From UHGV virus genome UHGV-1403449: DNA of 28,791 bases, one strand, 5' to 3'. Positions 1 through 28,791 of this stretch are shown here, in pieces. The notes under the pieces are model-generated. The model had not been told where the DNA came from, searched no databases, and saw only the letters and a list, made by a program, of their open reading frames with translations. The stretch is from a virus. Numbering within the stretch: position 1 is the first letter of the stretch; each line of letters opens with the position of its first letter. Made by a program: the position numbers and the translations under genes.

Positions 1-339
1 CATCCCCGTTTTCTTACCGTCGGACGTGACGCCACCGATAATATTGGAGGTGGTTTCAGCTTCGGTTTCGCCCTGCGCCACGCGCACAACAACCGTCACG
101 GGCTTTGACTGATCGGCAATAGCATCCAGCGAACGGGCCAGCGTGCCGGACTCGCCTGCTTTACCGCTGGCCTCCAGCACATCCGTCAGCAGAACCGGCT
201 TGTTGAGGGGGAACACGGACGCATCAGCATCATCGCCGGTGCAGACCATACCTACGATAGCAGTGCTTACCGTGGTGAGGGAGCGGGTGCCGTCGTTGAC
301 TTCAACAACGCGCACCCCGTGGTGGTAATCCTGAGCCAT
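1..339 (-). CDS. P2 FI-like contractile tail sheath protein, N-terminal part only (gene runs off the left edge of the window)
   Basis: Reverse-strand ATG at 339..337 preceded by AGGAGG; translated N-terminus [51 protein letters not shown]... closely resembles the P2 FI sheath N-terminus as recalled from memory. The track's 143..328 plus-strand ORF is antisense to it. Confidence 0.7.
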
Positions 340-422
340 AGCGGCGAACCTCCTGATTGGAATAGGCTTCGCCCTATGTTGTATTGATTACGTCACGCAG
401 ACAGCTGCGCGGCGTTGTCCTG

Positions 423-980
423 TTAATCACACAATGTCGCAGGATATTTGCGGTATAACGTAGAGACACCCACATCAAAAATTAAAGCTACCCGCTGCCG
501 TGTTTCACCTGCAGCAATTAACCTGCCTGCCTGCGCCCATTGCTCTGGCGTCAGTTTTGGTCTTCGCCCTCCAACCCTGCCTTTAGCCCTTGCAGCTTCC
601 AGTCCCGCACGGGTTCGTTCCACTATCAGCTCACGCTCCATCTCCGCCAGCGCCCCCATAACGTGAAAGAAAAACCGCCCCATTGGCGTACTGGTGTCTA
701 TGCTGTCAGTCAGACTACGGAAATTAACTCCGCGCTGCCGGAGTTCTTCTATCAGGGTAACAAGGTGTCGCATGCTTCTTCCCAGCCTGTCGAGTTTCCA
801 TACGACCAGCGTGTCTCCCTCTGATAACGTCCTGAGCAATCTTTTTAGCCCTGGCCTGTCTGCTGTTTTTCCGCTCATTTTGTCTTCAAAAATTAGCTCA
901 CATCCTGAGCGTTCCAGAGCACCACGCTGCAGCGCTGTGTTTTGCTCACTTGTTGATACGCGCACATAGCCGACTAACAT
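423..980 (-). CDS. pin: Serine recombinase, DNA invertase of the Hin/Gin/Cin/Pin family (tail-fibre inversion)
   Basis: Translation MLVGYVRVSTSEQNTALQ...VVWKLDRLGRSMRHL...GRRPKLT... has the resolvase/invertase catalytic-serine N-terminus and a C-terminal HTH. ORF is open to 998 but the ATG at 980..978 (MLVGYVRV) matches the family's start. It lies next to the invertible fibre cassette. Confidence 0.9.
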   Translation of the reverse strand: MLVGYVRVSTSEQNTALQRGALERSGCELIFEDKMSGKTADRPGLKRLLRTLSEGDTLVVWKLDRLGRSMRHLVTLIEELRQRGVNFRSLTDSIDTSTPMGRFFFHVMGALAEMERELIVERTRAGLEAARAKGRVGGRRPKLTPEQWAQAGRLIAAGETRQRVALIFDVGVSTLYRKYPATLCD

Positions 981-1041
981 TTGTTTTCCCTTATGCAAAA
1001 GTCCAAATAATGCCAGCCAGGCGGGAAAACAGCATTTTCTT

Positions 1042-1059
1042 AAACGTTGGTTTAGGAGA
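1042..1059. repeat. Left inverted repeat / candidate crossover site (gix/hix/pix-like) of the invertible tail-fibre segment
   Basis: TTAAACGTTGGTTTAGGAGA at ~1040-1059 matches the reverse complement of 2922-2946 (GCAAACCTTGGTTTGGGAGA) at about 16 of 20 positions; AAAC..GTTT core as in hix/gix sites. Confidence 0.6.
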
Positions 1060-1426
1060 TATCAGTGCTACAGGTGTTGCGACAGGTAGTATGGGCGAAA
1101 CCGGATATGCCATATTTCCGATGATGATTGGCGGTGCACGTAAGACTTTTATTATGCAATGGGGATTGCTGACGCCTCTGAAATCAGGTGGCTATGTGAA
1201 TATTAACCTTCCTGTCGCTTTTCCTACTATGGTGATGCAGGCATATGCAACACATGATAATGCGACACTAAACACACGCCCGACAGTATATGCAATTACT
1301 ACAACAAGCCGAACCACTATCACTGCGACGGCGACGTGCTTAGATGCTGGCTCAGTGGGCGCTACAGTGACACGCAGTAGTGACGATACTGCGTGTTACG
1401 GTCGTTATTTTGCAATAGGGTGCTGA
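1060..1426 (+). other. Silent alternative tail-fibre C-terminal cassette (Sv-prime-like), promoterless in the current orientation
   Basis: Plus-strand ORF 950..1426 crosses the left repeat; the peptide from ...NVGLGD onward is Gly/Thr-rich and fibre-like, and NVGLGD mirrors NLGLGE at the constant/variable junction of the expressed fibre gene. It is followed immediately by a plus-strand tail-fibre assembly gene. Confidence 0.6.
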
Positions 1427-1427
1427 A

Positions 1428-1871
1428 ATGAATCTTAAATATTTTTCTCCATCTGAAAATGCGTTTTATGCCGGGGAGCTTAAAGAAAGCTATATCGCTG
1501 CTGGCTCATGGCCTTCTGATGCCTCGGAGGTTGATGAAAGTCTTTATCTTGAGTTTATCGATAAACCGCCAGCAGGTAAGTATCGAGGAGTGGATAATGC
1601 AGGAATGCCCTGCTGGCTTGAAATTCCTCCTCCCACAGTAGAGGAAATGGCATCGAATGCAGAGAATATAAGACAGCAGCTCATTGATAAGGCAAATGTT
1701 TATATAAACAATCGTCAGTGGCCGGGAAAAGCAGCGATAGGCCGTTTAAAGGCAGATGAACTGGAACGATATAACCTTTGGCTGGATTATCTGGACGCAC
1801 TGGAACTGGTCGATACTTCCGGTGCGCCAGATATTGAATGGCCTACGCCTCCGGCAGTTCAGGCCAGATGA
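1428..1871 (+). CDS. Tail-fibre assembly chaperone, alternative copy (U-prime / Tfa-like) inside the invertible segment
   Basis: 147 aa; the C-terminal ...RYNLWLDYLDALELVDTSGAPDIEWPTPP motif parallels the C-terminus of the minus-strand Tfa (NAVLDYIDAVTATDTSTAPDVIWPELP). The two genes are convergent. Confidence 0.8.
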   Translation: MNLKYFSPSENAFYAGELKESYIAAGSWPSDASEVDESLYLEFIDKPPAGKYRGVDNAGMPCWLEIPPPTVEEMASNAENIRQQLIDKANVYINNRQWPGKAAIGRLKADELERYNLWLDYLDALELVDTSGAPDIEWPTPPAVQAR

Positions 1872-2445
1872 CATCCGGCGCGGTGCTGGTATCTGTTGCC
1901 GTCACCGCGTCAATGTAATCCAGCACGGCGTTAAGTCGGGTTGTTTCTGCCTGCGTCAACTTCCGTCCGGCCTGTAATTTCAGCTGAATCAGACTAATGG
2001 AAACCATTGCTGCATCAATCAGTGACTGGCGCTGTGCTTCTGCCGCTTCTACTGCGGCGCTATGCTGTGCCTCAGTATCCGTCACCCATTTCTCACCATC
2101 CCATTTATCATATGGCGTTAACGGGGCGATAGTGGTTGTATTTTCAGGGTAATCACCCGGAGCTGTGATTTCTTTGGCGTCTCCCGTTTCGGTGTTATAG
2201 ACGATTTCACCGCGATGGTCTGACACATATTCCCATGATTTTAAATCCACAGAACGGCAAATTGTATAACCAGCTTTATGTGTAACTGGTGCATCTAAAC
2301 AAGAACATGCCGGGATACCGACGCCAACCGCAAGATATTCAGTTGATGTGGAAATATATTCCCGCGTTTCACCATCATAGTTATAAACGGTAATATCCCC
2401 TGCCTTTGTAGCAACAAGTCCACTATTTAATATTGCTTTATCCAT
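1843..2445 (-). CDS. Tail-fibre assembly chaperone (U / Tfa-like), copy expressed in the current orientation
   Basis: 200 aa with the conserved Tfa C-terminal motif; start overlaps the stop of the upstream fibre gene (translational coupling). Confidence 0.8.
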   Translation of the reverse strand: MDKAILNSGLVATKAGDITVYNYDGETREYISTSTEYLAVGVGIPACSCLDAPVTHKAGYTICRSVDLKSWEYVSDHRGEIVYNTETGDAKEITAPGDYPENTTTIAPLTPYDKWDGEKWVTDTEAQHSAAVEAAEAQRQSLIDAAMVSISLIQLKLQAGRKLTQAETTRLNAVLDYIDAVTATDTSTAPDVIWPELPEA

Positions 2446-3329
2446 TATGCTGCTCTCACGATATAGTTAAATGCAATGTTTCTTGGTCTGTTCTCTGAGG
2501 CAGTTGGCACTACTCTTGAAGCATCAAAATTGACTAAATGAGGATTGTTTGGGGTATTTGGAATGATTGTGGTGTTACCTATCGTATTACGAAGTGCTGA
2601 TTGACTTACAAAAACACCACTCGCTGTATTAAAGCTAATAGCCGCATTAGCTTCGGTTTGTCCATTACCAAATGTGCCGGTTATATTACGAATAGCATCC
2701 CCCTGAGCAGACAGAATTTCGCGCCCCGCGTCAATACCGCGCCCGTCATCCCAACCACGAATAAACTCACCACGTAAATCAGGCAATTTATTTGTCGGAT
2801 AAGCCTTTGCCAGTTCCGGGTATTCTTCAGCAGAAAAAGCGGCACCGTTGCATTTCAGCCAGCCTGTTGGCGGAGTGGCGGAAGGCCACGGAACAGGGAC
2901 ACCAACAGGTAATGCAGAGCCTTCTCCCAAACCAAGGTTTGCGAGACCGTTTTTTGACGTTAATACAGGAGTCCATTTTGCTGATGGCGGCTGGCTACCA
3001 ATATTTGCATTTTGTAAGGACTGATAAGATTCACCGTTATGTGTGCAGATCGAACCGATATGATATTCCTGTTCTGCATGCCACTCTGGAACCCCCATTT
3101 GGTGCTGATACGCAATGAACTGACTCATTGCATACATTGCCGCATTGAAGTCCTCAAGCGAGGGGTGTTCGGAAGCGCCAACAATGCCCCATCCGCGAAG
3201 GAAAGATGCCGTAATTTGCGAGGTCAGGTCATCCGCCTGATTTGTTCCACCAAACACGGTTCTTTCCATTCCCTGTGCATCAGAGGCAAAAGCCCGAACA
3301 TCTCCCTGATATCGTACAATCTTAGACAT
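2445..3329 (-). CDS. Tail fibre protein (constant N-terminus of about 130 aa fused to the currently selected variable C-terminus carrying a tail-collar-type domain)
   Basis: 294 aa; C-terminal WLKCNGAAFSAEEYPELAKAYP...LPDLRGEFIRGWDDGRGID matches the phage tail collar motif; GAGGA Shine-Dalgarno before the ATG at 3329; the right inverted repeat lies at codons ~131-136 (NLGLGE). Confidence 0.8.
   Translation of the reverse strand: MSKIVRYQGDVRAFASDAQGMERTVFGGTNQADDLTSQITASFLRGWGIVGASEHPSLEDFNAAMYAMSQFIAYQHQMGVPEWHAEQEYHIGSICTHNGESYQSLQNANIGSQPPSAKWTPVLTSKNGLANLGLGEGSALPVGVPVPWPSATPPTGWLKCNGAAFSAEEYPELAKAYPTNKLPDLRGEFIRGWDDGRGIDAGREILSAQGDAIRNITGTFGNGQTEANAAISFNTASGVFVSQSALRNTIGNTTIIPNTPNNPHLVNFDASRVVPTASENRPRNIAFNYIVRAA
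2925..2942. repeat. Right inverted repeat / candidate crossover site of the invertible segment, inside the tail-fibre gene
   Basis: Reverse complement of 2922-2946 aligns with 1040-1059 (see left repeat); position matches the constant/variable junction of the fibre protein. Confidence 0.6.
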
Positions 3330-6315: not shown

Positions 6316-6849
6316 ATGGGATTCAAATTCAGACAGCGCATCAAAATTGCACCAGGCATTCATATAAACATAGGTAAAACAGGCATTACTAGCGCATCAA
6401 TTGGTAAGGCTGGTGCTACCCTGAACGTTGGTAAAAAAGGGGTAAAGGCAACCGCAGGCATTCCCGGTACCGGTTTGTCTTACACGAGTGGAAACTTGCT
6501 CGCGGGTCAAAAGAGCTCCACCGGTAAACACGCTGAGAACGTAGAGGAACAAGCACCTGAGCGGCTTGGTTTCTTTTCGGACTCAACGTTGTTAGAGGAT
6601 GGTCAGGAAGATATTCAACCACCTCGCCCATTGGTCATGGTATTAACCCATAAGCAATTTAGAAAACTATCAACCGAGGAGAAAACGGCATTTAAAAATG
6701 CAGGTGGTAAGGTGAAGTTTTCAATAGGCGAGAAAATTTTTATTCTCACAGTCATTATTTTTGCTCTTGGCTGGCTTTCAGATCGTCACCCACCAGAAAA
6801 AACCAATTCCAGCGTAACGCAAGAAGTAAAATCTTCAGTTAACAACTGA
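6316..6849 (+). CDS. Moron gene: DUF4236-like protein with a C-terminal transmembrane anchor
   Basis: Opposite strand to the whole tail operon; AAGGAG Shine-Dalgarno 8 nt before the ATG; N-terminus MGFKFRQRIKIAPGIHINIGKTGITSASIGKAGATLNVGKKGVKATAGIPGTGLSY resembles the DUF4236 signature as recalled; C-terminal hydrophobic stretch IFILTVIIFALGWL; its 3' end overlaps the convergent baseplate hub gene by 15 nt. Confidence 0.7.
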   Translation: MGFKFRQRIKIAPGIHINIGKTGITSASIGKAGATLNVGKKGVKATAGIPGTGLSYTSGNLLAGQKSSTGKHAENVEEQAPERLGFFSDSTLLEDGQEDIQPPRPLVMVLTHKQFRKLSTEEKTAFKNAGGKVKFSIGEKIFILTVIIFALGWLSDRHPPEKTNSSVTQEVKSSVNN

Positions 6850-8126: not shown

Positions 8127-8933
8127 TTAGAATAAAGATTTCGCCGCCCCTTTTAACGAGGTCATGACTGATTTTGACTGGCTGGTCCCGTTACTTTTTT
8201 TAGAATTATCAGCGGGCGTCTGCGCCCCCTTATTAGCAACGCCCGCCGTTTTTGATTTAGCAGCTGCCGAGGGGGATTTGAAGTGCTGCTCAATCGGTGC
8301 GGTAGTCAGTTGCGTGAAGGTGATTTTTGTAAAACTGGCTTCAAACTTAGTTTCCATCGTTTGATTGTCGGTACTGATGGTCAGGCCGCTTAACGCCATA
8401 TTTTCATGGGTGCGATAATCCACCTCCACGGAAATAAGCTGCTTGCCGTAGTACACCCCCTCAATGAAGTCGAGAAATTGCTCGCGTATACCTTTAGCGC
8501 CACCAGTAGACGGGTTGCCCACCAGCCCAAACAGGTCGGCTCCTTTATCAGCCAGGCGTTTTGCCTTTAAGATGGCCTGCTCTGCGCGGTCGGCAATCTC
8601 ATTCATTTTTTGCAACTGCTGCTGCGTCTTTGCGGGGATGTACTCCAGCACCTCACCATACTTCGAATAATCTGGCATCAGGCTAAAAGAAGAGTTTGGT
8701 TTCGCATCGACAAAAATATCGGCAACAACACCGCTGATTTTTATCGTCAGCGGGCCATTGATAATGTCGTCTGACGCGTTACTGCCATCCTCCAGCACGT
8801 CTACAGGAACCTGAGACGGGTATTCAGTAGCATCGCTCACTCGGGCAAACATTGAGAACCCGCCGATCCCTACCTTTTTAACAGTATCTTTGCCAGAAGA
8901 TTGCGCCTGCATGAGGCCGTCTAGAATCCCCAT
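8127..8933 (-). CDS. Putative tail protein (position of Mu gpN DNA-circularisation protein)
   Basis: 268 aa ORF immediately after the tape measure gene; start/stop overlap with the tape measure gene; synteny only. Confidence 0.4.
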   Translation of the reverse strand: MGILDGLMQAQSSGKDTVKKVGIGGFSMFARVSDATEYPSQVPVDVLEDGSNASDDIINGPLTIKISGVVADIFVDAKPNSSFSLMPDYSKYGEVLEYIPAKTQQQLQKMNEIADRAEQAILKAKRLADKGADLFGLVGNPSTGGAKGIREQFLDFIEGVYYGKQLISVEVDYRTHENMALSGLTISTDNQTMETKFEASFTKITFTQLTTAPIEQHFKSPSAAAKSKTAGVANKGAQTPADNSKKSNGTSQSKSVMTSLKGAAKSLF

Positions 8934-10729
8934 TACCGACCTCCTCTGCCACTCAACCGGTTGGCATCCTTCATGTTTTGTTGCAGGCTATCTGCCGCAG
9001 TATTCCCGGCGACAACCGGATCGGATGTGTTGATGTGAATCGTGTTCTGCTGGCTGACGCTTGAATTGCTTGTCACGCCACCACCACCGAGTCCCACCGC
9101 AGCATTCATGCCGTAAGGAATACCACCAGGACTCATGCCGCCGTTACCGCCGCCGGTTACTCCCTGCTGCTGTTCATCCTCACCGACCCCGAAGAATGAC
9201 TTTGTCGCATTCCAGGCATTTGAAGCAGCGTTGCTGATAATATTGCTGATGTATTCCCCCAGCCCAGCAAAGATGTTTTTCGCCCAGTCAATAAAAGCCG
9301 TGAATGGTTTTTTCATCAGTTCGACGCCGTTATCGAAGATTTTTACCACATCCCCCCATGCACCTTCAAAATCGCCAGCGACTAACTTCCATAGTGCTGA
9401 GAACATCAGCTTCGTGTTTTCGATGGCAGTAGTGAATACATCAACGACAAACGCGCCGGCATCGCCAAACACGTATTTAATCGCATCACCAACGACACCA
9501 AATGCACCAGTGATAAACGCTATAAGAGAATCAAAGATATTCTGCGCATCCTTCATCGCACCCTGAAAATCACCCGTAAACGCACCTGTGATGAGATGCC
9601 ACACCATCCTGAACATGGAGGCAATCGCATCAGCAAGCGGTTTAAACACGCCAATAGCGTAGTTTATGAAAGCCATGAGCGACGCTTTCGCCTCTTTCAG
9701 TGCGGGAACAATATCTATTCCCCAGTTATCTTTGAAGAAATCAGCAATAACGCTTTGGCCACCTTCCATAGCCGTCAGCAAATCATCGATAACAAGAACG
9801 ACAGCGATAATGGCGGCAGTGATCAGTACGACAGGAGAGAATATGGTTGCCAGCACCGCTCTAAGTCCTATAGCAGCAATTTTCCAGGCTACAAATCCGG
9901 TGGTAATAAGACCAATAATCGGCAGGAAGCGACGGATCATACCCATAACGGAGAAGATAATTTCCCCAAGATGGGCCAGCCCGTTTTTGATGAGATCCTT
10001 ATTAGCAATGAGAATGTCCGTAAACCCATCCACCAGGTCTTTCAGTACCGGCACAAATCCGACGGCAACCTGAAATTTGATACCATCAAAGCCTTTCCCC
10101 AGCGTTGTCAGAGAATCGTTGTAGGCTGCAAACTGATCGGCCTGGTCTTGCGTGACAACACCAAGCGCCTCGGCCTTGTTCTGCAACGAAGATATTTCTT
10201 CGCCCGTCATGGATAGCAACTGCACCATGGAACGGTCGATACCCATCTTATCCAGAACAGAAAACTTCTCTGCCTGGCTCATGCCGTGCAGTTTGTCGGC
10301 CAGTTCACGAAATATCACATCGGAGTTTTTTACCTGCCCGTTCATATCCTTGAACTGAAGGCCCAGCCTTTCCGCAACGTCTTTCGCCTCCCCCTCACCG
10401 GTGGAAACGAACTCCCCCACTCTTTTTGTCATCTCACCTAGCGAAGCCTGCAACGCATCAACACTTGAGCCATTTACAGACGCCGCGTAACCCAGTGACT
10501 GAACGGTCTCGATCGCCACCCCCGTTTCCCGGGAGAACTGGACCAGCGGATCAATAGACTGACTGACAGACGTCACCCAGCCAGCAACCCCCGCAGCCGA
10601 ACCGGCGATAGCGGCTCCAAGCCCGGCAAGCAAACCAATAGATGCTTTCAGATTTGCATTGAAGGTTTCCTGCGGCGCCAGATTACCGATAAAACCGAAT
10701 TTGGTAATAAGCTCGTTAACTATCGCCAT
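8933..10729 (-). CDS. Tail tape measure protein
   Basis: About 600 aa, largest tail ORF, directly downstream of tube and chaperone genes; long Ala/Gly-rich hydrophobic central segments typical of tape measure proteins. ORF is open to 10795 but the ATG at 10729 (MAIVNELITKFGF) is the probable start. Confidence 0.8.
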   Translation of the reverse strand: MAIVNELITKFGFIGNLAPQETFNANLKASIGLLAGLGAAIAGSAAGVAGWVTSVSQSIDPLVQFSRETGVAIETVQSLGYAASVNGSSVDALQASLGEMTKRVGEFVSTGEGEAKDVAERLGLQFKDMNGQVKNSDVIFRELADKLHGMSQAEKFSVLDKMGIDRSMVQLLSMTGEEISSLQNKAEALGVVTQDQADQFAAYNDSLTTLGKGFDGIKFQVAVGFVPVLKDLVDGFTDILIANKDLIKNGLAHLGEIIFSVMGMIRRFLPIIGLITTGFVAWKIAAIGLRAVLATIFSPVVLITAAIIAVVLVIDDLLTAMEGGQSVIADFFKDNWGIDIVPALKEAKASLMAFINYAIGVFKPLADAIASMFRMVWHLITGAFTGDFQGAMKDAQNIFDSLIAFITGAFGVVGDAIKYVFGDAGAFVVDVFTTAIENTKLMFSALWKLVAGDFEGAWGDVVKIFDNGVELMKKPFTAFIDWAKNIFAGLGEYISNIISNAASNAWNATKSFFGVGEDEQQQGVTGGGNGGMSPGGIPYGMNAAVGLGGGGVTSNSSVSQQNTIHINTSDPVVAGNTAADSLQQNMKDANRLSGRGGR

Positions 10730-10882
10730 TCCGCGCCTTCTCCATCTCGTAGTGTTGAATGTCTGCGCTGATATTCTCGAACTCAAGCATGTCAAACAGC
10801 TCTGGTGTGTCTAATTTAACAAGTTCGTGATAGGGGCCGTATCCGGCCTTTGATAGCGCCAGATACATGCTCATGTCGTCGC

Positions 10883-11746: not shown

Positions 11747-13249
11747 TTATTTATTGAAATTGATGATGATATCGGCACTGTGAACAGCACCAGCATTCTT
11801 CACTGCTACCTGAACAACCGGGGATTTGCGTTCCTGCCTGTCTGCGGTTGACTGGTCTTTCAGGTCACCGGCCAGCACGTAATACCCGTTTTGCTCGATA
11901 TTTCGCAGAAACATATCCCGATCCCCGAAGAAGTCAGGCAGCGTCCAGGTACCCGGATTGAACACCCCAGCCTTCACAAACCCATGCGTGGTTTTCTCTA
12001 CACAGTCCTCTAACTGATCAACGCCATAATAGGTTTGTGGGACTTTAGTCGGCGTGGTTTTAAGGAGGTTGAAGGAATCCGTCTGCACTGCGTCAACGTA
12101 GGCCATCAGGTTATAGACGTTGTCGACAAAATCATTAGCACCGCTCGACAGCACGCAGGGAACGTCTTTAATCGTGGTGTAGATGTCGAGACCTACACGC
12201 TTCGCTTTGTCGATCTCCGTCTGCTCATAACTTTCGGCCGGCACGTTCATCGTTTTGAGGTGCAAAGTGATTGCAGTGCGTTCTCCGTTGAAATTAACGG
12301 TATGCGTGCGCGCCATATAGCTAACACCAAATTTCCGGTTGCCTGTTTTGCTGTAGAGCATGCGGAAATTACTCTGGCTGGCGAGTGTTACCGCCCATGC
12401 CGGGTTAGTCGGATCAACTTCCAGAGCTGCCGAACCGGTAAATGTCTCATACACGATTACCGCGTTCGCTTTAGCCCATGAAGCGATCAACGGCACCTGC
12501 GCATCGAGAATTTTGTCGATGAAGGCCGCGCCTTTTACGTTGACCTGCGCTTTGAGTTTGCTGAGAGATTCCAGTTGTGTTTCCGGTGAAATCTCAGTTG
12601 ATGCGCTACCGTTTACCAGCGAAGCGCCGGAACCCTCCGCAACCGCCAGCAGATCGCCAATAAAAGAGCCACCATCCAGCACTGTCGGATAACCAACAAC
12701 AGAGTTAGTCCCTGTCGATTTGTTGGTAATCGCTATACGGCTGCCATCAAAAACAACCGATGCAACATCTGGCGTAATTTTCGCCTGGATTTGGGCGATG
12801 ACATCTGCCAGTGTCGTCGCCGTCATGCCATTAATTTCAGTCACATCGTGCTTAGTGCCGTCAATCTCAATACTGAATGACCAGTCAGACTTCTCGCGTA
12901 ACGCTGGCAGTACGACTGCCTGAGAAATCTCACCGCCACGCAGTACACCGCTGGTCGCAGGCAGCGTTTCCCCGGCAGCGTTCCAGTAACCGACGATCAG
13001 CGTGCCGCCCGCGGATACCGGGTTAGGACTGGTCCCGAAAAACACATTCGCAAAAGCTGCGGTGACTGAAGAAGCCCCCCAGTCCTGTTCGACAGCAGAT
13101 GCGCTTTTGTATGAACGCCAGCGTTCAGCAGTGCTCAATACCCCCGTCTGGCTGGTCAGAATTGCGCAAACGTTGATGTTATCTCGCGCCGCCGCCCGTC
13201 CCTCTTCGAGAAGCGTCACATTAATGACGTTATTAATTGATGCCGACAT
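11747..13249 (-). CDS. Contractile tail sheath protein (Mu gpL-like)
   Basis: 500 aa ORF, first large gene after the head-tail joining genes and followed by tube, chaperone and tape measure; size and position typical of Mu-like sheath. Confidence 0.7.
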   Translation of the reverse strand: MSASINNVINVTLLEEGRAAARDNINVCAILTSQTGVLSTAERWRSYKSASAVEQDWGASSVTAAFANVFFGTSPNPVSAGGTLIVGYWNAAGETLPATSGVLRGGEISQAVVLPALREKSDWSFSIEIDGTKHDVTEINGMTATTLADVIAQIQAKITPDVASVVFDGSRIAITNKSTGTNSVVGYPTVLDGGSFIGDLLAVAEGSGASLVNGSASTEISPETQLESLSKLKAQVNVKGAAFIDKILDAQVPLIASWAKANAVIVYETFTGSAALEVDPTNPAWAVTLASQSNFRMLYSKTGNRKFGVSYMARTHTVNFNGERTAITLHLKTMNVPAESYEQTEIDKAKRVGLDIYTTIKDVPCVLSSGANDFVDNVYNLMAYVDAVQTDSFNLLKTTPTKVPQTYYGVDQLEDCVEKTTHGFVKAGVFNPGTWTLPDFFGDRDMFLRNIEQNGYYVLAGDLKDQSTADRQERKSPVVQVAVKNAGAVHSADIIINFNK

Positions 13250-18519: not shown

Positions 18520-19799
18520 GTGCCACCCCCTGCGACAATCGCCTTAATTTCTGCTTCGGTGACCGTCTTCAGTACGCCCCGGTTTATCATTTCCCTGATA
18601 GCAACTTCTTCCGTCAGGATTGAACCCGTTACCAGCGTATTAAATCCGGTGGCGTACTGGCTAAACCGGTTAGCTTCGTCAGCCTCATTAATACTGTCGA
18701 TTGTCGGGTATTCGTAGGTAAGGCTTTCCGTTATGGCGAGTTTATCCAGCGTGAACTGGTCGGCGAAATCCTGCATTGGACGAAGCCGGGACTCCTGAAG
18801 TCCGTTAATCGTCTCGTAATAGGATTTATTGTCTTCCTCTCCGCTGCTGAACCCGCTGGCAGACTCACCAAACAGAACCGTTATGGGCCTGTCCAGAGCA
18901 CCGGCCAGTACAATCGCCATTTTGCTGATCACATCCGACAGTCCGGTAAATTGCGCGTTTTTCTGCTCATAGCGCCCTTGAGATGTTGTATCACCAGCGT
19001 CAATTAGCAGCAGCCCGGTTGAGGATTTAGTTTCCTTCATCACCCTGGCGTATTCGCGCACCTGCCCTTCCTGACCCGCTGCGATCTGGTTATTCATGCC
19101 GGGGATAAACAGCACATCGACGTTTGCCTCCTGTATGGTGTCTCCGGTGCTGAGGATTGCTGTGTCGAAGGTTTTGATATGCTCATAGGGCGCCTGAAGG
19201 TCTGACGTGCCAAACTTTGCGCGATCCTTAATGCTGTGATTGCCCAGCTTTGTCCGGCAGCAGCGGGAATGATGAAACCTGAGGTGCTTCGTCCCGACAT
19301 CAAGTTGATACGTCAGCGGCTCACCAAAACAGTCCGAACGTATGTCGGTGATGACATTACTGTCCGGCGTGTACTCCCCTTTACGGAACACCAGGAATTT
19401 AACGATATCTTCGCTCTGCAAATTGAGCGGCAAGGCTATCTGGTCATCAGCACAATCCGTGATAGCCACGATTAGCGAGTCACCCAACAGAGAGGCCCAT
19501 CCCAGCGCGCTGTGAAAGACTGCGTTTAATTTCAGTTCTTTTTCAGCGTCAGCGATGCGTTTGGTTATGGAGCTATCGACGTCGCCCGAAAATTTACGGG
19601 GCAACTTCAGCATGTCGTCGGCGGTTTTGTTGATGTACTTTTTCACCACCCACGATTTTTTATACATCGCGAGCAGCTCTTTATCAGGTACGTCAGGCTT
19701 ACTGCTGCTATACCGCACTGCGCCAATCTTCTCGCCGAGCGAAGTCATTAAGCTAACCAGGCCATCATTCAGACGACCAACGATATTTTTTCTCGTCAT
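18510..19799 (-). CDS. Portal protein
   Basis: 429 aa ORF whose start abuts the stop of the large terminase gene; canonical terminase-portal order. Confidence 0.7.
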   Translation of the reverse strand: MTRKNIVGRLNDGLVSLMTSLGEKIGAVRYSSSKPDVPDKELLAMYKKSWVVKKYINKTADDMLKLPRKFSGDVDSSITKRIADAEKELKLNAVFHSALGWASLLGDSLIVAITDCADDQIALPLNLQSEDIVKFLVFRKGEYTPDSNVITDIRSDCFGEPLTYQLDVGTKHLRFHHSRCCRTKLGNHSIKDRAKFGTSDLQAPYEHIKTFDTAILSTGDTIQEANVDVLFIPGMNNQIAAGQEGQVREYARVMKETKSSTGLLLIDAGDTTSQGRYEQKNAQFTGLSDVISKMAIVLAGALDRPITVLFGESASGFSSGEEDNKSYYETINGLQESRLRPMQDFADQFTLDKLAITESLTYEYPTIDSINEADEANRFSQYATGFNTLVTGSILTEEVAIREMINRGVLKTVTEAEIKAIVAGGGTWT

Positions 19800-21217
19800 T
19801 ACATGATGTCCAGTGGGCTGAGTGTTTTTCTCTGATACAAATCGCGTAGTCCCTGTGTCATTGCATCGACAACGTCATCGTTCGCGCCGACAGGGAACGT
19901 GGTAATTTCCTCGACCGTCTCAGTGATCCACGGTGCGATGTCTTTATGGGGAAGGAAAACGTTACCTGCTTCCCATACAGCGGTGATCGCATGCGCCCGG
20001 GCGACTTTGCTGCCGTCCGGTTCAACGGGAACGAGTCCTGCTACGGTGCTTTTCAGTGAATCAATAACCGCCGGGCCGTTGGCTTTATCCTCCACCAGCT
20101 TGCGCAGGCCTTTGGGGTATTCGTCGGCCATGCGTTTAACGGCTTTGAGTGTTGCGGTAAAGCTCATGCGCGCGCGCACCTGGTGAAGCAGATAAGCATT
20201 GGCGCCTTTTTTCCCCCATACCTGCCCGACAACGTAGTCGGTGCCCTCGCTGTCTTTGAAGGTCATATCCCAGCTATGGACGACAATATCGAAGTTGGTC
20301 GGCAAGTCTTTCGGGAGGTAATACTTGATCCACTCGTCTTTGAAGATTGAGCCGCCGGCCTGTTTTGGTGACTGCTGATACATCGCAGACCAGAAGTAAT
20401 CCCCGAGAATGGTTTTGGTTTCGAGCAGCTTTTCTTTCGGGTGCAGTTCAGGCACCAGCGCTTCACCCTGCTCGTTGATTGCAGGGAACGCCAGCACCTT
20501 AGCGCGCGGCGTGATTTCCACCACACGCCCGGATAAATCATCTGTCGCCCAGCGGGTCGCCATGATGATTTCGCCGCTGTTTTTCGACAGACGCGTTTTA
20601 AACGTGGAAACGTACCAGTTCCAGATAGATTTTTTGGTCGTCGGGCTGAGTGCTTCTTTGGCGTTTTTTATCGGGTCATCGATGATACCGAGATCGATTT
20701 TCTTACCTGTTAACGGGCCGCCTACGCCCGCACAGACATACGTTCCCTTATGGTTGGCTATACCGAATTCGTCAGTGTTACGCTTTACGGCCACACCATC
20801 AGCCGGCTTATTTCCCAACCAGGCACCCGGAAATATGTTGCGGTATTCCGGCGTGGACATAATGCGCTGAACATCGGCGTTCATGTCCCCGGCAAGGTCA
20901 GCGGAGTACGACAAAGCGCCCACGCGCATTTCAGGATATTTTCCGAAGAAATACGCTGGCAGGTAACGCGAAACGATATCCGATTTACCATGCTGCGGCG
21001 GCGCACCGAGAATCAGTATCGGGCGCAGCCCGTTCATCATATCCAGCAGGAACTGATCCAGAGCGTCGCAGACCGTCTGAGAGAACTTGCTGGTGATGTA
21101 TTCGGGATTAATGTACTGAATGAAGTCGTGGAGGCTTGCCCGCGCATTGCGTCGTTTGAGTAACTCGGCCGCTGCTTCCTGCTTACTTACCAGCGATAAT
21201 TGCGGCGAGCTGCTCAT
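19799..21217 (-). CDS. Terminase large subunit
   Basis: 472 aa; Walker A-like LILGAPPQHGKS near the N-terminus and acidic nuclease-type motifs in the C-terminal half; follows the small subunit gene. Confidence 0.85.
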   Translation of the reverse strand: MSSSPQLSLVSKQEAAAELLKRRNARASLHDFIQYINPEYITSKFSQTVCDALDQFLLDMMNGLRPILILGAPPQHGKSDIVSRYLPAYFFGKYPEMRVGALSYSADLAGDMNADVQRIMSTPEYRNIFPGAWLGNKPADGVAVKRNTDEFGIANHKGTYVCAGVGGPLTGKKIDLGIIDDPIKNAKEALSPTTKKSIWNWYVSTFKTRLSKNSGEIIMATRWATDDLSGRVVEITPRAKVLAFPAINEQGEALVPELHPKEKLLETKTILGDYFWSAMYQQSPKQAGGSIFKDEWIKYYLPKDLPTNFDIVVHSWDMTFKDSEGTDYVVGQVWGKKGANAYLLHQVRARMSFTATLKAVKRMADEYPKGLRKLVEDKANGPAVIDSLKSTVAGLVPVEPDGSKVARAHAITAVWEAGNVFLPHKDIAPWITETVEEITTFPVGANDDVVDAMTQGLRDLYQRKTLSPLDIM

Positions 21218-22268: not shown

Positions 22269-22829
22269 ATGAAATACTCACAGCAAGAAAAACTACAGAT
22301 CATGATGCTCAGTGATATTCACCGAGCATTAGAAATTGAAAACTCATTTGATCCTGACCTCATTGACGAAGCAGTGAGCACGGATAACTACTGGGCTTTA
22401 TCCTGGGAATACCCAGGCCTTCAAGATGAAGAAGAGGAGACCCCCTGGGAAGTCCAGCTTTTCGTTGATACCTATGATATGTATGACATTCTCCAATACA
22501 CATACGAACGATTCAGTGCGGAAGACAAAGCAGAGGTTGCCAAATCTATTCGTAATTTCGATGAGAAATTATCACTCACATTCCCCGGATTTGACGGTAA
22601 CAACGAATCAAAGTTTCTTTTGATTGGTAGTTTATTGAAACGAATGGGACGGTTTAGCGGCAAAGACGATCTCACCCGGAACTCTCACATGCCCTCTGTT
22701 GCAATTTACCAACGTATGCTTGAAGTTTTCCTTCCTGCCAGAGCTAAGAATTGGGTTCACAATGTGGGCATTACTAAACATGATTTTATCGATACACTCA
22801 ACGCGAGAGTGCATCCAGAAAATCGTTAA
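22269..22829 (+). CDS. Moron gene: putative YfbU-like (UPF0304) protein
   Basis: 186 aa ORF on the opposite strand between the spanin and terS genes, with its own promoter-like and terminator-like elements; C-terminal ...YQRMLEVFLP... and overall pattern resemble E. coli YfbU as recalled from memory (unverified). Confidence 0.5.
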   Translation: MKYSQQEKLQIMMLSDIHRALEIENSFDPDLIDEAVSTDNYWALSWEYPGLQDEEEETPWEVQLFVDTYDMYDILQYTYERFSAEDKAEVAKSIRNFDEKLSLTFPGFDGNNESKFLLIGSLLKRMGRFSGKDDLTRNSHMPSVAIYQRMLEVFLPARAKNWVHNVGITKHDFIDTLNARVHPENR

Positions 22830-22834
22830 ACGTT

Positions 22835-22856
22835 AATGCCCGCAAATGCGGGCATT
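22835..22856. terminator. Hairpin at the convergent junction of the plus-strand moron and the Rz gene (possible bidirectional terminator)
   Basis: AATGCCCGC-AAAT-GCGGGCATT perfect 9-bp stem with a 4-nt loop; the flanking T-run is weak. Confidence 0.45.
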
Positions 22857-23382
22857 ATTCATCATGGCGCCTTATTACTTTGTCGTAGGTGCGCTCACAG
22901 GTATTTCCGGCGACATAACGCTCATCAGCCTCTTTTGCGAATTTTCCCGCCAGATCGTCAGCTTCGCTGAGCAACTGGGCGAGCAATATTCCGGCCTCGG
23001 CTTTTGCCTGGCTTGTTGCTGCAATTGCGGAAATTCTGCCTGTTTCACTTGTTGCGAGCTGCCGTTGTATTTCGGCGAGCTGCTGTTGCAACCCACTGCG
23101 AGCACGCTTAGCAGCGTTAGCATCAGCCTGTACTTTTGCCAGTTCTTCATCGGCTTTCTCTCGTTCTTCATCTACGGCCCGCTGGCGGCGCTGCTCTTCT
23201 GCTCTTTCGGTTACTTCACGCTGCAATGTAGTGGTCGCATCAGTAAGGTCACGTTGTGCCCACTGCAATTTCCAGGATGAGTCCGCCTCCTGATACCCGC
23301 GTGAATAACACCAGTACGCGACCGCGCATAACAAAAAAGCCACCAGCAGTATTTCTGCCAGCGGCTTCCAGTAAGCCCTCAC
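22855..23382 (-). CDS. Rz: i-spanin (Rz-like)
   Basis: N-terminal transmembrane segment (LAEILLVAFLLCAVAYW) followed by a long charged coiled-coil (EEQRRQRAVDEEREKADEELAKVQ...); probable GTG start at 23382 overlapping the endolysin stop (GTGA); ORF is open upstream to 23445. Confidence 0.75.
   Translation of the reverse strand: MRAYWKPLAEILLVAFLLCAVAYWCYSRGYQEADSSWKLQWAQRDLTDATTTLQREVTERAEEQRRQRAVDEEREKADEELAKVQADANAAKRARSGLQQQLAEIQRQLATSETGRISAIAATSQAKAEAGILLAQLLSEADDLAGKFAKEADERYVAGNTCERTYDKVIRRHDE
22875..23150 (-). CDS. Rz1: o-spanin (Rz1-like lipoprotein) embedded in another frame within Rz
   Basis: ORF entirely inside the Rz coding region in a different frame; signal peptide with lipobox (LLSVLAVGC), Pro-rich mature part; probable start at the second Met (MKNWQKY...). 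Confidence 0.7.
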   Translation of the reverse strand: MKNWQKYRLMLTLLSVLAVGCNSSSPKYNGSSQQVKQAEFPQLQQQARQKPRPEYCSPSCSAKLTIWRENSQKRLMSVMSPEIPVSAPTTK

Positions 23383-23921
23383 TGGTCTATCCCCCAGCAC
23401 GTTAACGCGCTTTCCTGGTCTCGTCGCTCTACCTGACCATAGCACCCATTTTTCTGGCCTTTGGTCAGACGACAGTCGCGGCCACCATCTTTAATCCACC
23501 AGCGAATAGCTTCACATGCGCCTTTACGGTCGCCAGCATTAATTCGCTTATAGAACGTAGACGGGAAACATTTCCCGGGGCCGATGTTATAGGGGCAGAA
23601 AGATGCGATCCCGGCTTTCTGTGGTTCGGTCAGTGGTACTTTGATATTTCGGTCAACCCACGCCAGCGCCTTGTCGCGTTCAATGGCATTCACCTGGGCA
23701 CATTTCTCAGCTGACAACTTCATACCCTGAACTACCGGCTTGCCATCAACCATCGTGGCGCCACGGCAAATCGTCCAGAGCCCACCGCCGTCTCGATACG
23801 CCTGCTCGCTATTACCCTCCTTCTCATCCAGAAACTGATCGAGAATAACTGGCGCGGATGCCCCGGCAAGAATCAAACCAACGACCGCTGCGCTCAGCTT
23901 ATTCCTCAGCTTTGGTGGCAT
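23379..23921 (-). CDS. SAR endolysin (phage lysozyme, R21-like)
   Basis: N-terminus MPPKLRNKLSAAVVGLILAGASAPVIL is a Gly/Ala-rich signal-anchor-release segment; followed by a lysozyme catalytic region (DEKEGNS...GGLWTICRG). Confidence 0.85.
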   Translation of the reverse strand: MPPKLRNKLSAAVVGLILAGASAPVILDQFLDEKEGNSEQAYRDGGGLWTICRGATMVDGKPVVQGMKLSAEKCAQVNAIERDKALAWVDRNIKVPLTEPQKAGIASFCPYNIGPGKCFPSTFYKRINAGDRKGACEAIRWWIKDGGRDCRLTKGQKNGCYGQVERRDQESALTCWGIDQ

Positions 23922-24177
23922 ACCCATTGCGCCGATCCTCCCGTTCTTTCCAGCGGAAATACCAGTTCACTGCACAGGTGATTACCGTACATGCGATACC
24001 GACAATAATTGCCCAGTCGCTCAGGCTTAACCCTGCAATTCTGTCGGCCAACATCCAGGACACCTCTTTTGCTGTTTTAGCTGTTTCGGCATATGCCTTC
24101 GCTGATACACCGCAGCCGGTCAGCGTGGTTCCTGTTCCATATGAAAGTCTGCTGTAAATGGTGCTCATTCTGGTCAT
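23899..24177 (-). CDS. Class II holin (pinholin, S21-like) with dual-start motif
   Basis: Probable start MTRMSTIY (Met-Thr-Arg-Met dual start giving antiholin/holin); two hydrophobic segments and a charged C-terminus (YFRWKEREDRRN) resembling phage 21 S; ORF is open to 24234. Confidence 0.7.
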   Translation of the reverse strand: MTRMSTIYSRLSYGTGTTLTGCGVSAKAYAETAKTAKEVSWMLADRIAGLSLSDWAIIVGIACTVITCAVNWYFRWKEREDRRNGYATKAEE

Positions 24178-24456
24178 AGCCTCACCTCCGATTTTTCGGA
24201 TGGCGCTGTGTGTGATGATAAGGTCAGGCTTCACGGGCTGGATTTATCAACAAAGCACGTAGTAATTGATTCCCGTGAGCCTGAAATGAAAAAGGCCACC
24301 AGTTGGCAGCCTCGAAGTGAGTTAACTTGTTTATATAGGTGGAGCGAGAGGTCCTTCTAAAACTTCCGCTTCACCGTTATGGCAAATGTCATCACCTATG
24401 GTCAGACGCCTGTGGTTGTGATGGCCGTTTAAGATTGAGCCAGCACTGTAGTTGCA

Positions 24457-25248
24457 TCAATTACCCAATGGCTTATGTAGTTTAAATGGGTTAAGTGATT
24501 CTTCATTTTTCAGGCTTATCTTTAAATTCACAGCAATCAGTGAATGATCGTCAGTTGGTCCAGCGCGCTGTATCCGCTTAAAAAGATTGGTTGAAAAGTT
24601 AGTAGCATTCTTCAATGTATTGGGAGAAAAACGCGGGCGGCGTTCCCAGAAGTGATGGGCTCCATCGGACATCAGAAAAAGAGAAACAACACCGTCATGG
24701 TCCATCAAATCTGACAGGGGTAACGAAATATGCTGAAATTTTATTGGCAGGACTTTAGAAATAGCTGCAGTAAGCATGTTCTTTCCTGGTAAGTCTTCCA
24801 ATTCCCTTTTCGTATATAACCCATCGTCGAGCAACTCTTGATGCTGTGAGTGATCTTTCGTTAGTAGTTTTAATTTGTTATCAATTTTTACATACACCCG
24901 AGTATCGCCTACATGGATTACATTAAGTAACTCACCATGTACAACACAGTAGGATAATGTTGTTGCGGCCTTGCGCTTCTCTGAATCGAACTGAGATAGT
25001 TCAGATATTTTGTCTTTTGCACCACTAAGTATCGCATCAGGATCAGAACTGGCTTTCAGTTTATGAGTTGCGACATAGTCTACTGCAGCTTGCGCTGCTT
25101 CTTTAGCACCAGCATAAGACCCGACACCATCAGCAATAGCAAAAATGAAGCCATCATCACATTGTTGCGGGAGTAGTAACGCATCTTGGTTTTCACGACC
25201 ATGATCTTTGGGGCATGAAAATGCACCACAGCTCAACAACTCAATCAT
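24457..25248 (-). CDS. PP2C-family Ser/Thr protein phosphatase
   Basis: 263 aa; metal-binding motifs of PP2C phosphatases (IADGVGS, GDTRVY, MSDGAHHF); start overlaps the kinase stop by 4 nt (ATGA). Confidence 0.75.
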   Translation of the reverse strand: MIELLSCGAFSCPKDHGRENQDALLLPQQCDDGFIFAIADGVGSYAGAKEAAQAAVDYVATHKLKASSDPDAILSGAKDKISELSQFDSEKRKAATTLSYCVVHGELLNVIHVGDTRVYVKIDNKLKLLTKDHSQHQELLDDGLYTKRELEDLPGKNMLTAAISKVLPIKFQHISLPLSDLMDHDGVVSLFLMSDGAHHFWERRPRFSPNTLKNATNFSTNLFKRIQRAGPTDDHSLIAVNLKISLKNEESLNPFKLHKPLGN

Positions 25249-26027
25249 TTGCCTCTCCTTGCTGCAACAATATCATCAAGAATGTCTATCATCTCAGTGA
25301 CAGAATCGTACCTTGAACGAGGCGTAAATGCCGCTGATTTATCGATTAATGTCGTTATACCGTCAATATGAGATAGATTCATTTCACTAGTAATAACACC
25401 TAGCGCGTAAATATCTGATTTCTGTGTATATACTCCGCGTTTAGCCTCGTCAGACATGTACTTAGCAGTGCCAATACCCATTTTTTTGTTTTGAAGTACA
25501 CCTGACAAAAAATCAGATTGGGCTTTCGAATCCATACTTTTGATTAGGCCGAAATCGGAAATTTTGTAACAGCCTCCTTCAAACTTGAGGATATTCTCAG
25601 GTTTCAGATCCCTGTGAAGCAACCCAGCGTCATGGATATACTTAACGCCTTCAAACACCATCTTCAGGGCTAACAGCTTTTCATCATCAGAAAGAACGCC
25701 CGCTTTTAGTTCGCTTCTTAGGTCTGTTTCTGCCAACTCCATCACAAACCAAGGGTTTTCTATGCTTAAATGATGTATGCAAATTCTTACAACATGATCA
25801 TGATTGCACTTGGCTTGGTAGTCGACTTCACGCTTAAACCGACGCTTCCAGTCATCTACACTAAAATATTCATTTAATAACGCAGGATTAACTGAAAGAA
25901 CTTTCCTTGCATACTCACCACAAAGATGGCTATCGGTGTTATATACCTCAACCTTTTCCACACGACCAAAAGCACCAAAACCTAGATCTCTCAATGGTTT
26001 TATAAGGTAATTACCCCTGGGTTCCAT
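25245..26027 (-). CDS. Hanks-type (eukaryotic-like) Ser/Thr protein kinase, catalytic domain only
   Basis: 260 aa; Gly-rich loop LGFGAFGRV, catalytic loop HRDLKPENIL, DFG motif (ISDFGL), activation-segment TAKYMSDE and subdomain IX DIYALGV. Confidence 0.85.
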   Translation of the reverse strand: MEPRGNYLIKPLRDLGFGAFGRVEKVEVYNTDSHLCGEYARKVLSVNPALLNEYFSVDDWKRRFKREVDYQAKCNHDHVVRICIHHLSIENPWFVMELAETDLRSELKAGVLSDDEKLLALKMVFEGVKYIHDAGLLHRDLKPENILKFEGGCYKISDFGLIKSMDSKAQSDFLSGVLQNKKMGIGTAKYMSDEAKRGVYTQKSDIYALGVITSEMNLSHIDGITTLIDKSAAFTPRSRYDSVTEMIDILDDIVAARRGK

Positions 26028-27067: not shown

Positions 27068-27832
27068 CTATCGCGTGACTTTGTTCAACATCTGGTTTGC
27101 GTACTCTTCCTGCTTGATGCACTCACCTACCAGACTTTCGAAAAAATCCTTGTAAGACCTGCGCCACGTGGTTTCAGGTATATCCATCACCGTTACGCAG
27201 ATGTATTTACGGACGCTATCAGGTAGCAATCTGGCATAACCACGCCCATTGCAGCGCGTACAGGTTTTATATGCAGGAACGCCGCGCTGTAGAATAGTTT
27301 TCTCTTTGTCTAATACTGTTCCTTTGCCATTGCACTGGCATGCGTTGGTCAGAGCACCCTTCCCTTTGCATTTGTGGCAAAGCACCTTAACCATCTCTCT
27401 TTTTTCGCTAAGGTGTGGCTGTCCGATATGCTTCATCGTCATTACTTCAGCTTCGACAAACTTATTTCCATGGCAGCAGTCGCACGTTCTGGTGCTGGCC
27501 GCACTCCGGGAGTAATCAGCAAAGGCGAAAGTTGCGAGAACTTGCATTACCTTTGGCTTAACATCACTCTCAAGCTTGCGTAAGGCAGCAACCTTATCGC
27601 AGTGCTCAATTGCATATTTTGTCAGCAAATCAATCGCTCGCTCGCGATCGTAATCACTGATATCCATCTTTCCTAGGAATGCACTGAACCCGAGAGCAGC
27701 ACGGCTCTGTGTCATTCCGATCGCCGCCATAATGTCAGTGCCGGTTAATGAGTCAGATGCTGTCGCGCGTGGAGCGTCGCTAATCATCGTTGACTTCGCG
27801 AAGTGGTATTTCACTGTGTTTTCAAGGTTCAT
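27068..27832 (-). CDS. Late-gene antitermination protein Q (lambdoid Q family with Cys-rich zinc-binding region)
   Basis: Cys-rich motifs CDCCHGNKF, CHKCKGKG, CQCNGKG, CTRCNGRG; located between NinG and the late leader/lysis region. ORF is open to 27928; the start at MNLENTVKY (27832) is tentative. Confidence 0.65.
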   Translation of the reverse strand: MNLENTVKYHFAKSTMISDAPRATASDSLTGTDIMAAIGMTQSRAALGFSAFLGKMDISDYDRERAIDLLTKYAIEHCDKVAALRKLESDVKPKVMQVLATFAFADYSRSAASTRTCDCCHGNKFVEAEVMTMKHIGQPHLSEKREMVKVLCHKCKGKGALTNACQCNGKGTVLDKEKTILQRGVPAYKTCTRCNGRGYARLLPDSVRKYICVTVMDIPETTWRRSYKDFFESLVGECIKQEEYANQMLNKVTR

Positions 27833-27965
27833 AGCGCTTCTCCAGCATAAGTTTTCACGTAATTCTTCAGTATCCGGTAGTCCGTTAGCACAGAGCCGGG
27901 AAAGTGGTATAAGCGCAATCGTTGCCAACGAACGCGGAGGTGATCGGCAAAATAGGATTCAAATG

Positions 27966-28574
27966 TCATGCGGCCTCCCTGCTCTTAATTAATCCACGAC
28001 GAAGTGCGCTGTAGCGCTTCCTGATAGCTTCGAGTTCTTCTATTGTGTATCGGTGCGGAACGTTATTGTTTTCGAGCGCCTCGACGCGCTCAGCCCCTAT
28101 TTTCTCTATAAGGCCAAGGCGGTACTGCTGCTGATTGCCCGACAACTGAACGTTACAGTGGTGGCACTGTTTACTGATATTGTCCTCGTGATAGCGAAGA
28201 TGTGATGCCTTACCGCGTGAGCGGTAGTGACCTGCTTCCCACTGGACGGTTTCGAACGTCCCGCAACTGATGCATGGCAAATAATGGTCACGCTCGCGAA
28301 TATAGTCATTGACTACACGCTGCGTTAAATCTTCCCAGTGCTTCAGCGGCTTAAACGCAGCTTTACGCTGGCGCCAAGCGGCTCGCTCTTTTTTCTCAGT
28401 GGCGCGCTTTTTGGCAGACTCCTTGCGTTGTGCCGCCTCCCTGACCTTTCTGGTCTGCTCTTTTCCAACCGCGCTGGCGCACTCATAACCGCAGACAGTC
28501 TGCGTATCGCGAACAGGGTGGAACCACTGGCGGCATTCTTTGTTGGCGCACTTACGGCGCGGTAGCTTAGCCAT
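27966..28574 (-). CDS. ninG: NinG (Rap) recombination-promoting nuclease-like protein
   Basis: Translation from MAKLPRRKCANKECRQWFHP... through ...DLPCISCG...QWEAGHYRSRG... matches lambda NinG along the full length as recalled; ORF is open to 28586. Confidence 0.85.
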   Translation of the reverse strand: MAKLPRRKCANKECRQWFHPVRDTQTVCGYECASAVGKEQTRKVREAAQRKESAKKRATEKKERAAWRQRKAAFKPLKHWEDLTQRVVNDYIRERDHYLPCISCGTFETVQWEAGHYRSRGKASHLRYHEDNISKQCHHCNVQLSGNQQQYRLGLIEKIGAERVEALENNNVPHRYTIEELEAIRKRYSALRRGLIKSREAA

Positions 28575-28576
28575 GC

Positions 28577-28791
28577 TCAACCCCACGCCCTGTTTTGCCA
28601 GACCTTACTCGGGCGCGGCGCTTTCTCGCTTTCCGGCAGCTGAACGCTGACGGTCCAGGTGATGTTGTCGCGGTTCAGGCTGCGTTCTACTGTGGCGCCA
28701 CGACGGCGATAACTCGCCACCAGCTCGTTTGCCTGTTCGGTTGTGCATTCGTGATGGTGGAACCAGGAATATTTCATCGCCATCACCCCGC
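28577..28791 (-). CDS. Hypothetical Nin-region protein, possibly truncated at the right edge of the window
   Basis: ORF MMAMKYSWFHHHECTTEQANELVASYRRRGATVERS...; the first codon in the track is GTG and the frame remains open to the window end; stop abuts the ninG start. Confidence 0.4.
   Translation of the reverse strand, partial: GVMAMKYSWFHHHECTTEQANELVASYRRRGATVERSLNRDNITWTVSVQLPESEKAPRPSKVWQNRAWG

Follow-up and report, generated by a model that had tools for sequence, protein, structure and literature searches.

How the start of a P2-type tail sheath gene comes to stand next to a long phage element that already has a sheath gene of its own, and where the two meet, is the question raised by this locus. 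The DNA analysed is a stretch of 28,791 nucleotides from a virus genome (UHGV-1403449), here called the window, read on one strand from 5′ to 3′. Near its left edge lie the sheath start, a short spacer, a gene for a DNA invertase and a tail fibre region. In the earlier note on this DNA, the invertase was taken as the end of a Mu-like prophage and the boundary with a second contractile-tail element was thought to lie probably in the spacer. The coordinates of all features are collected in Table 1.

Table 1. Features assigned in the window, in order of position, with the basis of each assignment.
Feature	Position	Strand	Basis or remark
FI, P2-family tail sheath, first 113 codons; continues past the edge	1-339	-	Translation, Pfam, identity with Fels-2 and P2, prophage DNA
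Probable P2-type late promoter pF and FI leader	340-433	-	TGT-N12-ACA at 433-416, overlapping the invertase stop codon
Ribosome-binding site AGGAGG, 9 nt 5′ of the FI ATG	349-354	-	Read from the sequence; kept in E. coli P2-like prophages
Din-family serine DNA invertase, 185 aa, of the P2-like element	423-980	-	Resolvase and HTH_7; exact protein in P2-like prophages
Crossover site R, TTTCTTAAACG TT GGTTTAGGAGATA, core 1047-1048; left homology breakpoint	1036-1061		Din-type core pattern
Silent alternative fibre C-terminus, gp53-like_C (Pfam Gp53-like_C)	1049-1426	+	Own start codon absent
Alternative tail-fibre assembly protein Tfa′	1428-1871	+	Caudo_TAP 1e-31
Tail-fibre assembly protein Tfa, currently expressed orientation	1843-2445	-	Caudo_TAP 5e-32
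Tail fibre gene, with site L inside	2445-3329	-	PHROG tail fibre, Pfam Collar; homology switch at 2921-2946
Crossover site L, CTTCTCCCAAACC AA GGTTTGCGAGA, core 2934-2935; right homology breakpoint	2921-2946		Inverted relative to site R
Lambdoid prophage with E217/DUF3383-type contractile tail	2947-28791	-	Identity with VE-F5; PHROG and Pfam matches
Tape measure	8933-10795		In the lambdoid prophage
Second tail sheath	11747-13249		E217_gp31_N/DUF3383 2e-68; PHROG tail sheath 8e-84
TerL	19799-21217		In the lambdoid prophage
Lysis genes	22855-24234		In the lambdoid prophage
Antiterminator Q	27068-27928		In the lambdoid prophage
NinG	27966-28586		In the lambdoid prophage

The sheath open reading frame starts on the minus strand with an ATG at 339-337 and runs for 113 sense codons before it leaves the window at the left edge. 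The translated fragment matched Pfam Gp18_domIII_N (E 1.2e-11), and its identity was 107 of 113 residues with FI of Fels-2 (95%, E 9e-76) and 75 of 116 with FI of phage P2 (65%, E 2e-47). At the DNA level, the first 339 bases were 100% identical to two P2-like prophages (L013 and L018). As judged by homology over the 113-residue fragment, this is the start of a P2-type sheath gene, in agreement with the earlier note, which had reported an FI-type frame starting at 339 behind a strong AGGAGG. The second sheath gene reported there was also found again; no similarity was detected when the FI fragment was compared with it, and the two are unrelated. In every contig that holds the identical 1,059-bp block together with enough flank (L009 to L014), FI was followed by FII-E-T-U-D-ogr.

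The invertase gene upstream of FI gave matches with Pfam Resolvase (5e-52) and HTH_7 (1e-13). Its exact protein was recovered from 20 contigs, in which, where the flank suffices, it is followed by FI-FII-E-T-U-D-ogr and then by the host genes ybjL/ybjM/grxA. The DNA of positions 1-1059, which spans the invertase, the spacer and the FI start, showed 99.9-100% identity with P2-like prophages at ybjL. Out of 5,426 complete E. coli genomes, 11 matched all of 1-1000 at 94-97% identity and about 850 more matched 1-434 at approximately 83%; all of these matches are annotated as recombinase and/or phage tail sheath. Strain E7476 contains a complete P2-like prophage beside ssrA, including capsid, scaffold and terminase genes, in which the order is baseplate V-W-J-I, H, Tfa, inverted Tfa′, alternative C-terminus, recombinase, sheath, tube, E, T, U, D and ogr. 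An invertase immediately 5′ of FI was likewise found in Fels-2, in phage 500465-1 and in a Klebsiella Fels-2-like prophage (listed in PMC7826664).

Based on these comparisons, bases 1-1059 are assigned as an ordinary contiguous piece of a P2-like prophage of the Fels-2/Wadgaonvirus type, and an invertase directly upstream of FI is, by the same alignments, a known layout of the P2 family with nothing unusual about it. The invertase is thereby placed on the P2 side, and not, as had been proposed, at the end of the other prophage, whose own native invertase of 182 aa is only 53% identical to it. A tailocin or P2 remnant had also been suggested. The relatives do not point in that direction: those that share the identical block and have enough flank are full P2-like prophages with head genes, and the two in which the upstream flank is visible (L009 and L010) keep the head-completion gene gpL as well as lysis and baseplate genes.

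The spacer measures 83 nt from the invertase stop codon (425-423) to the FI ATG, where 82 had been counted before. The ogr-dependent motif TGT-N12-ACA, named in the earlier note as a feature to look for, was found at 416-433; in late promoters that depend on Ogr/Delta it lies about 55 nt before the transcription start. Its dyad centre lies 85.5 nt 5′ of the FI ATG, a distance like that in P2, in which 83 nt separate the centre of the annotated activator-binding site of pF from the FI ATG. E7476, EC11 and phage 500465-1 all conserve the dyad, and E. coli P2-like prophages also keep the stretch between it and the FI ATG; a TGT-N12-ACA dyad is likewise present upstream of FI in Fels-2. Among the hundreds of P2-like prophages with about 83% identity, similarity ends at base 434, just outside the dyad. 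The motif occurs seven times in the whole window against 6.3 expected, which is chance level, so that the argument for pF is carried by position and conservation. No sigma-70-like promoter was predicted on the minus strand of the spacer, as would be expected if the promoter is activator-dependent. The 83-nt spacer is thus most likely to function as the Ogr-dependent late promoter pF.

According to the model of the earlier note, the invertase belongs to a Mu-like prophage that ends with it, and the 82-bp spacer forms the border with a separately inserted P2-like cluster or tailocin. Its attraction lies in the order of fibre, inverted cassette and terminal invertase, which resembles the right end of Mu, and in the string TGTATTGATT at 380-389 (+), which resembles the first ten bases of the Mu left end. 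This string is conserved among P2-like prophages together with the rest of the spacer, and its likeness to the Mu left end is therefore treated as a coincidence; a Mu-type transposon end in the spacer was rejected on the same ground. Moreover, invertase, spacer and FI belong to one block that is found with near-complete identity in intact P2-like prophages, so the spacer does not hold the boundary, and both the different native invertase of the large element and the tail families described below stand against the model, which is considered highly improbable.

The large element was identified by its relatives and its gene content. Over 2921-23846 the window shared 99.8% identity with prophages found in E. 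coli VE-F5 and NADC1036. The genes on this side of the window comprise NinG, antiterminator Q, holin, endolysin, spanin, TerS, TerL and portal, and the tail families found were E217_gp31_N/DUF3383, Dit_like, Sheath_initiator, baseplate J, DUF2612/Wedge1 and tail_terminator_9 (neck terminator). None of the Mu-type tail families (Mu Gp45, GP46, Gp48, DNA_circ_N and a Phage_sheath_1-type sheath) was found in the large element; genuine Mu-type tails, which look different, were seen only in other loci with the same fibre cassette (L020, L022 and L025). The near-identical prophages additionally carry replication O/P and CI/Cro-like genes and occupy a fixed site beside yciI/tonB, where their native end reads fibre, Tfa, Tfa′, alternative C-terminus, 182-aa invertase and yciI. 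On this gene content, the large element is classified as a lambdoid prophage with an E217/DUF3383-type contractile tail. Its description as Mu-like could not be upheld, as NinG, Q, a lambdoid lysis cassette, TerS/TerL and an E217/DUF3383 tail were found and a transposition-based lifestyle was not indicated.

Prophages of this type, which correspond to window positions 2947-23846, are very common and usually lie next to yciI/tonB (seven further loci, L003, L004 and L029 to L033), and for the exact wedge protein 1250 blocks are listed in the collection. The sheath has less than 60% identity to the sheaths of all cultured phages in the collection, among which Vibrio phage 1.052.A and Yersinia phage fEV-1 come closest. 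The slot between antiterminator Q and holin is the classic moron slot of lambdoid phages; here it holds a minus-strand pair of a Ser/Thr protein kinase (25245-26027, Pkinase 3e-32) and a PP2C phosphatase (24457-25248), a pair also met in lambdoid prophages whose structural modules are very different. Within the late region, two single genes lie on the opposite strand and are kept in the near-identical prophages, a YfbU-family gene (22269-22829, +) between the lysis genes and the terminase, and a DUF4236 gene (6316-6849, +) within the baseplate cluster.

Between the P2-like block and the lambdoid prophage lies a cassette of 1.9 kb (1048-2934), enclosed by two inverted 26-bp Din-type sites with the same 2-bp core (TT in site R, AA in site L). 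These sites were found by a search for the Din-type core pattern and were missed in a generic inverted-repeat search of the window. The fibre gene runs across site L, where its constant N-part (2947-3329), belonging to the lambdoid prophage, is fused in frame to a variable C-part (2445-2934) belonging to the cassette. The constant stem reads in frame into either alternative C-terminus, into that at 1049-1426 after inversion (the frame was checked by hand), and the cassette was encountered in the flipped orientation elsewhere (L007, L015 and L043). The characteristics of the Din family found here are a serine recombinase with resolvase and HTH domains, two inverted sites, both orientations and C-termini in frame. 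With its inverted sites, shared core and C-termini in frame, the fibre switch is still intact in the window.

The cassette and its parts are distributed over several kinds of phage. The exact Tfa′ protein was shared by L043, a prophage of the E217 type, and L044, a P2-like one, and the exact Tfa protein was present in P2-type, Mu-tail-type and E217-type prophages. As a whole, the cassette was 99.7% identical to that of L043, which lies at yciI. On the P2 side, the same P2 invertase was linked to 1060-1155 with 100% identity in two short contigs (L016 and L018) and to a flipped 2252-2940 with 99.4% identity in contig L015. On the lambdoid side, a scaffold from a separate metagenome (scaffold_550, L005) had the lambdoid stem joined to the cassette, with one mismatch in 11.4 kb, and ended at window position 1920.

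The convergent Tfa (-) and Tfa′ (+) genes overlap by 29 nt at their 3′ ends (1843-1871). Many cassette variants start to diverge at about 1670-1720, which suggests that the cassette itself is built of two separately exchanged half-cassettes. Short-read contigs with the same P2-like invertase (L011 to L013 and L016 to L018) very often begin 50-175 nt upstream of the invertase, with starts that fall at or just past site R (window positions of about 1030-1155). Assemblies break systematically at this invertible cassette.

The position of the join follows from where the homologies end. Identity with the P2-like block stops at 1054-1059, the first mismatch at 1054 being inside site R, and native lambdoid prophages match from 2921-2934 rightwards, i.e. 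from site L. The cassettes of other phages match from 1042 or 1047 to 2935 or 2953, and identity with the L043 cassette starts at 1047. In these alignments every homology break falls on site R or site L, and the join is placed by them in the cassette: at site R, at site L, or between. For a crossover inside the cassette, the mismatch pattern gives stretches of 100% identity with L043 (1047-1968), with L005 (1920-2946) and with a contig containing the P2 invertase (1060-1155). Confidence in the block structure, the breakpoints, the identities and the canonical P2 layout is high. Two different elements with contractile tails thus do meet in the window, as the earlier note had it, but not in the spacer. 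The alternative offered there, an invertase and fibre cassette common to two tail systems, comes close to these data, except that the invertase belongs to the P2 side.

Other sequences were searched for a contig that has both junctions. No second case was present in the 5,426 complete E. coli genomes, nor in the contigs returned for five window proteins (fibre, invertase, Tfa, Tfa′ and wedge), all of which were native prophages or short contigs that stop at the cassette. In the viral, genome and metagenome collections, exact patterns spanning site L and site R had no match. A P2-like piece joined to a lambdoid prophage via a common fibre cassette could be a phage mosaic of a known type, and could also be an error of assembly.

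The preferred reading, with a probability of roughly 0.5, is that the join arose in vivo by recombination of two resident prophages. A P2-like and a lambdoid prophage would have been present in one cell, each with a near-identical fibre cassette. Exchange across the cassette may then have taken place, either catalysed by the invertase at the crossover-site core or by homologous recombination inside the cassette, and would give a product with the order lambdoid fibre stem, cassette, P2 invertase, pF and FI. This reading is preferred because the P2 side (99.9-100%) and the lambdoid side (99.8%) are each nearly identical to separate native prophages, because a near-identical cassette is present in both kinds of phage, with parts of it at 99.4-100% identity beside the same P2 invertase (L015, L016 and L018), and because the site-L junction recurs independently in metagenome scaffold L005. 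It also has a precedent in the exchange of fibre segments within one strain: a comparison of ST131 isolates showed inversion or translocation of fibre segments common to a P2-type, a lambdoid and a Mu-type prophage, and an invertase was encoded by two of these three prophages (bioRxiv 10.1101/2022.05.07.487787).

The same near-identical cassettes could have misled an assembler, which would have entered the cassette of one prophage and left into that of another, both the P2-like and the lambdoid prophage being intact in the sample. Misjoins by assemblers arise at precisely such shared repeats, here of 1.9 kb, and each of the two kinds of phage natively carries the same cassette, at 99.4-100% identity. 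Public contigs often stop at site R, and scaffold_550 has its end within the cassette. Each junction was seen separately in other samples, never together, and the hybrid is absent from the complete E. coli genomes searched. However, assemblers usually break at such repeats and seldom cross them, the window has no internal sign of a mixture, with no mismatch to L043 over 1047-1968 or to L005 over 1920-2946, and both crossover sites look like clean recombinant sites. An assembly chimera is accordingly regarded as a possible though somewhat doubtful explanation; on present data it is not separable from recombination in vivo.

The geometry of the insertion sites bears on both of these explanations. 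According to gene orientations read against the K-12 map, the prophages at ybjL and yciI lie in the same chromosome direction, so that, if both prophages sit at these usual sites, the junction would need a 420-kb tandem duplication or a cointegrate. A simple deletion or inversion between these two prophages was rejected, since with the same direction neither yields the junction. This arrangement speaks against a simple viable rearrangement, and to that extent for a chimera. In relatives at the rsmF/yebV site, the lambdoid prophage is in the opposite orientation, and an inversion gives the junction only if the lambdoid prophage lies opposite in this way.

Within recombination in vivo, a more specific proposal is that the Din-family invertase acted between crossover sites of two different resident prophages and so fused them. 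Din invertases strongly prefer inversion within one segment, which counts against a join made by the invertase, and this proposal is judged unlikely. If it were true, fibre invertases would, besides flipping host-range cassettes, join contractile-tail prophages that are unrelated to each other. The outcome would then be a large inversion or duplication in the chromosome, according to how the prophages are oriented, and the P2 late tail operon would come to lie behind lambdoid fibre genes.

The join could also belong to a genuine hybrid phage or its remnant, i.e. a lambdoid phage that captured the P2 invertase with part or all of the FI operon as one element. A possible route would be a P2 genome cointegrating at a crossover site, and the geometry permits a cointegrate with a circular P2 genome through site L by site L or site R by site R recombination; such an event would have to be very recent, in view of the near-100% identity with living P2-like prophages. 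On the other hand, a lambdoid genome together with a P2 genome would exceed the capacity of the head, Din invertases in general disfavour intermolecular fusion, and no second example was found in the 5,426 complete E. coli genomes or in the look-ups of the invertase and wedge proteins. A hybrid phage is therefore rated as quite improbable.

Among named phages, the P2-side part of the window is most similar to Fels-2/SopE-phi and phage 500465-1 (Peduoviridae, genera Felsduovirus and Wadgaonvirus), which are P2-like phages with an invertible H/G fibre segment. Their order is that of the window: H, Tfa, inverted Tfa′, alternative C-terminus, invertase, pF, FI, FII and the genes beyond. Likeness extends to the FI N-terminus (in Fels-2), the type of crossover site and the TGT-N12-ACA upstream of FI. 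The window differs from them in that a lambdoid prophage, whose tail is unrelated, takes the place of the P2 H stem, the baseplate genes and all that lies upstream. P2 itself has a homologous FI and nearly the same distance from activator site to ATG, but lacks an invertase and has the non-essential fun(Z) upstream of pF.

With the G/Gin system of Mu, C/Cin of P1, P/Pin of e14 and Hin/Fin of Salmonella, the locus has in common a serine invertase that is about 185 aa long and contains Resolvase and HTH_7 domains, a pair of 26-bp sites in inverted orientation whose core is AA/TT and, as the invertible segment, two alternative fibre C-termini with two assembly genes. It differs from these in that its sites also mark the join of two phage genomes, and its invertase is known from sequence. 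For P2-like and Mu prophages of E. coli, the inversion of loci of this type has been measured (PMC4272514). The ST131 report (bioRxiv 10.1101/2022.05.07.487787) describes the exchange of fibre segments, while in the window, if it is real, two prophage backbones would be fused outright. This fusion across the fibre cassette is the only unusual aspect of the locus; it is a known kind of event, unconfirmed in this case.

The annotation of the locus is corrected by these results: invertase, spacer and FI start are assigned as standard parts of a P2-family phage, and the large element as lambdoid with an E217-type tail, not Mu-like. If the join is an assembly error, it illustrates that cassettes of this kind are repeat traps for assemblers and for programs that call prophage boundaries. 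If the join is real, the promiscuous invertible fibre cassette would be a clean example of a recombination bridge between unrelated prophages, and such a bridge could drive both phage mosaicism and rearrangement of the chromosome.
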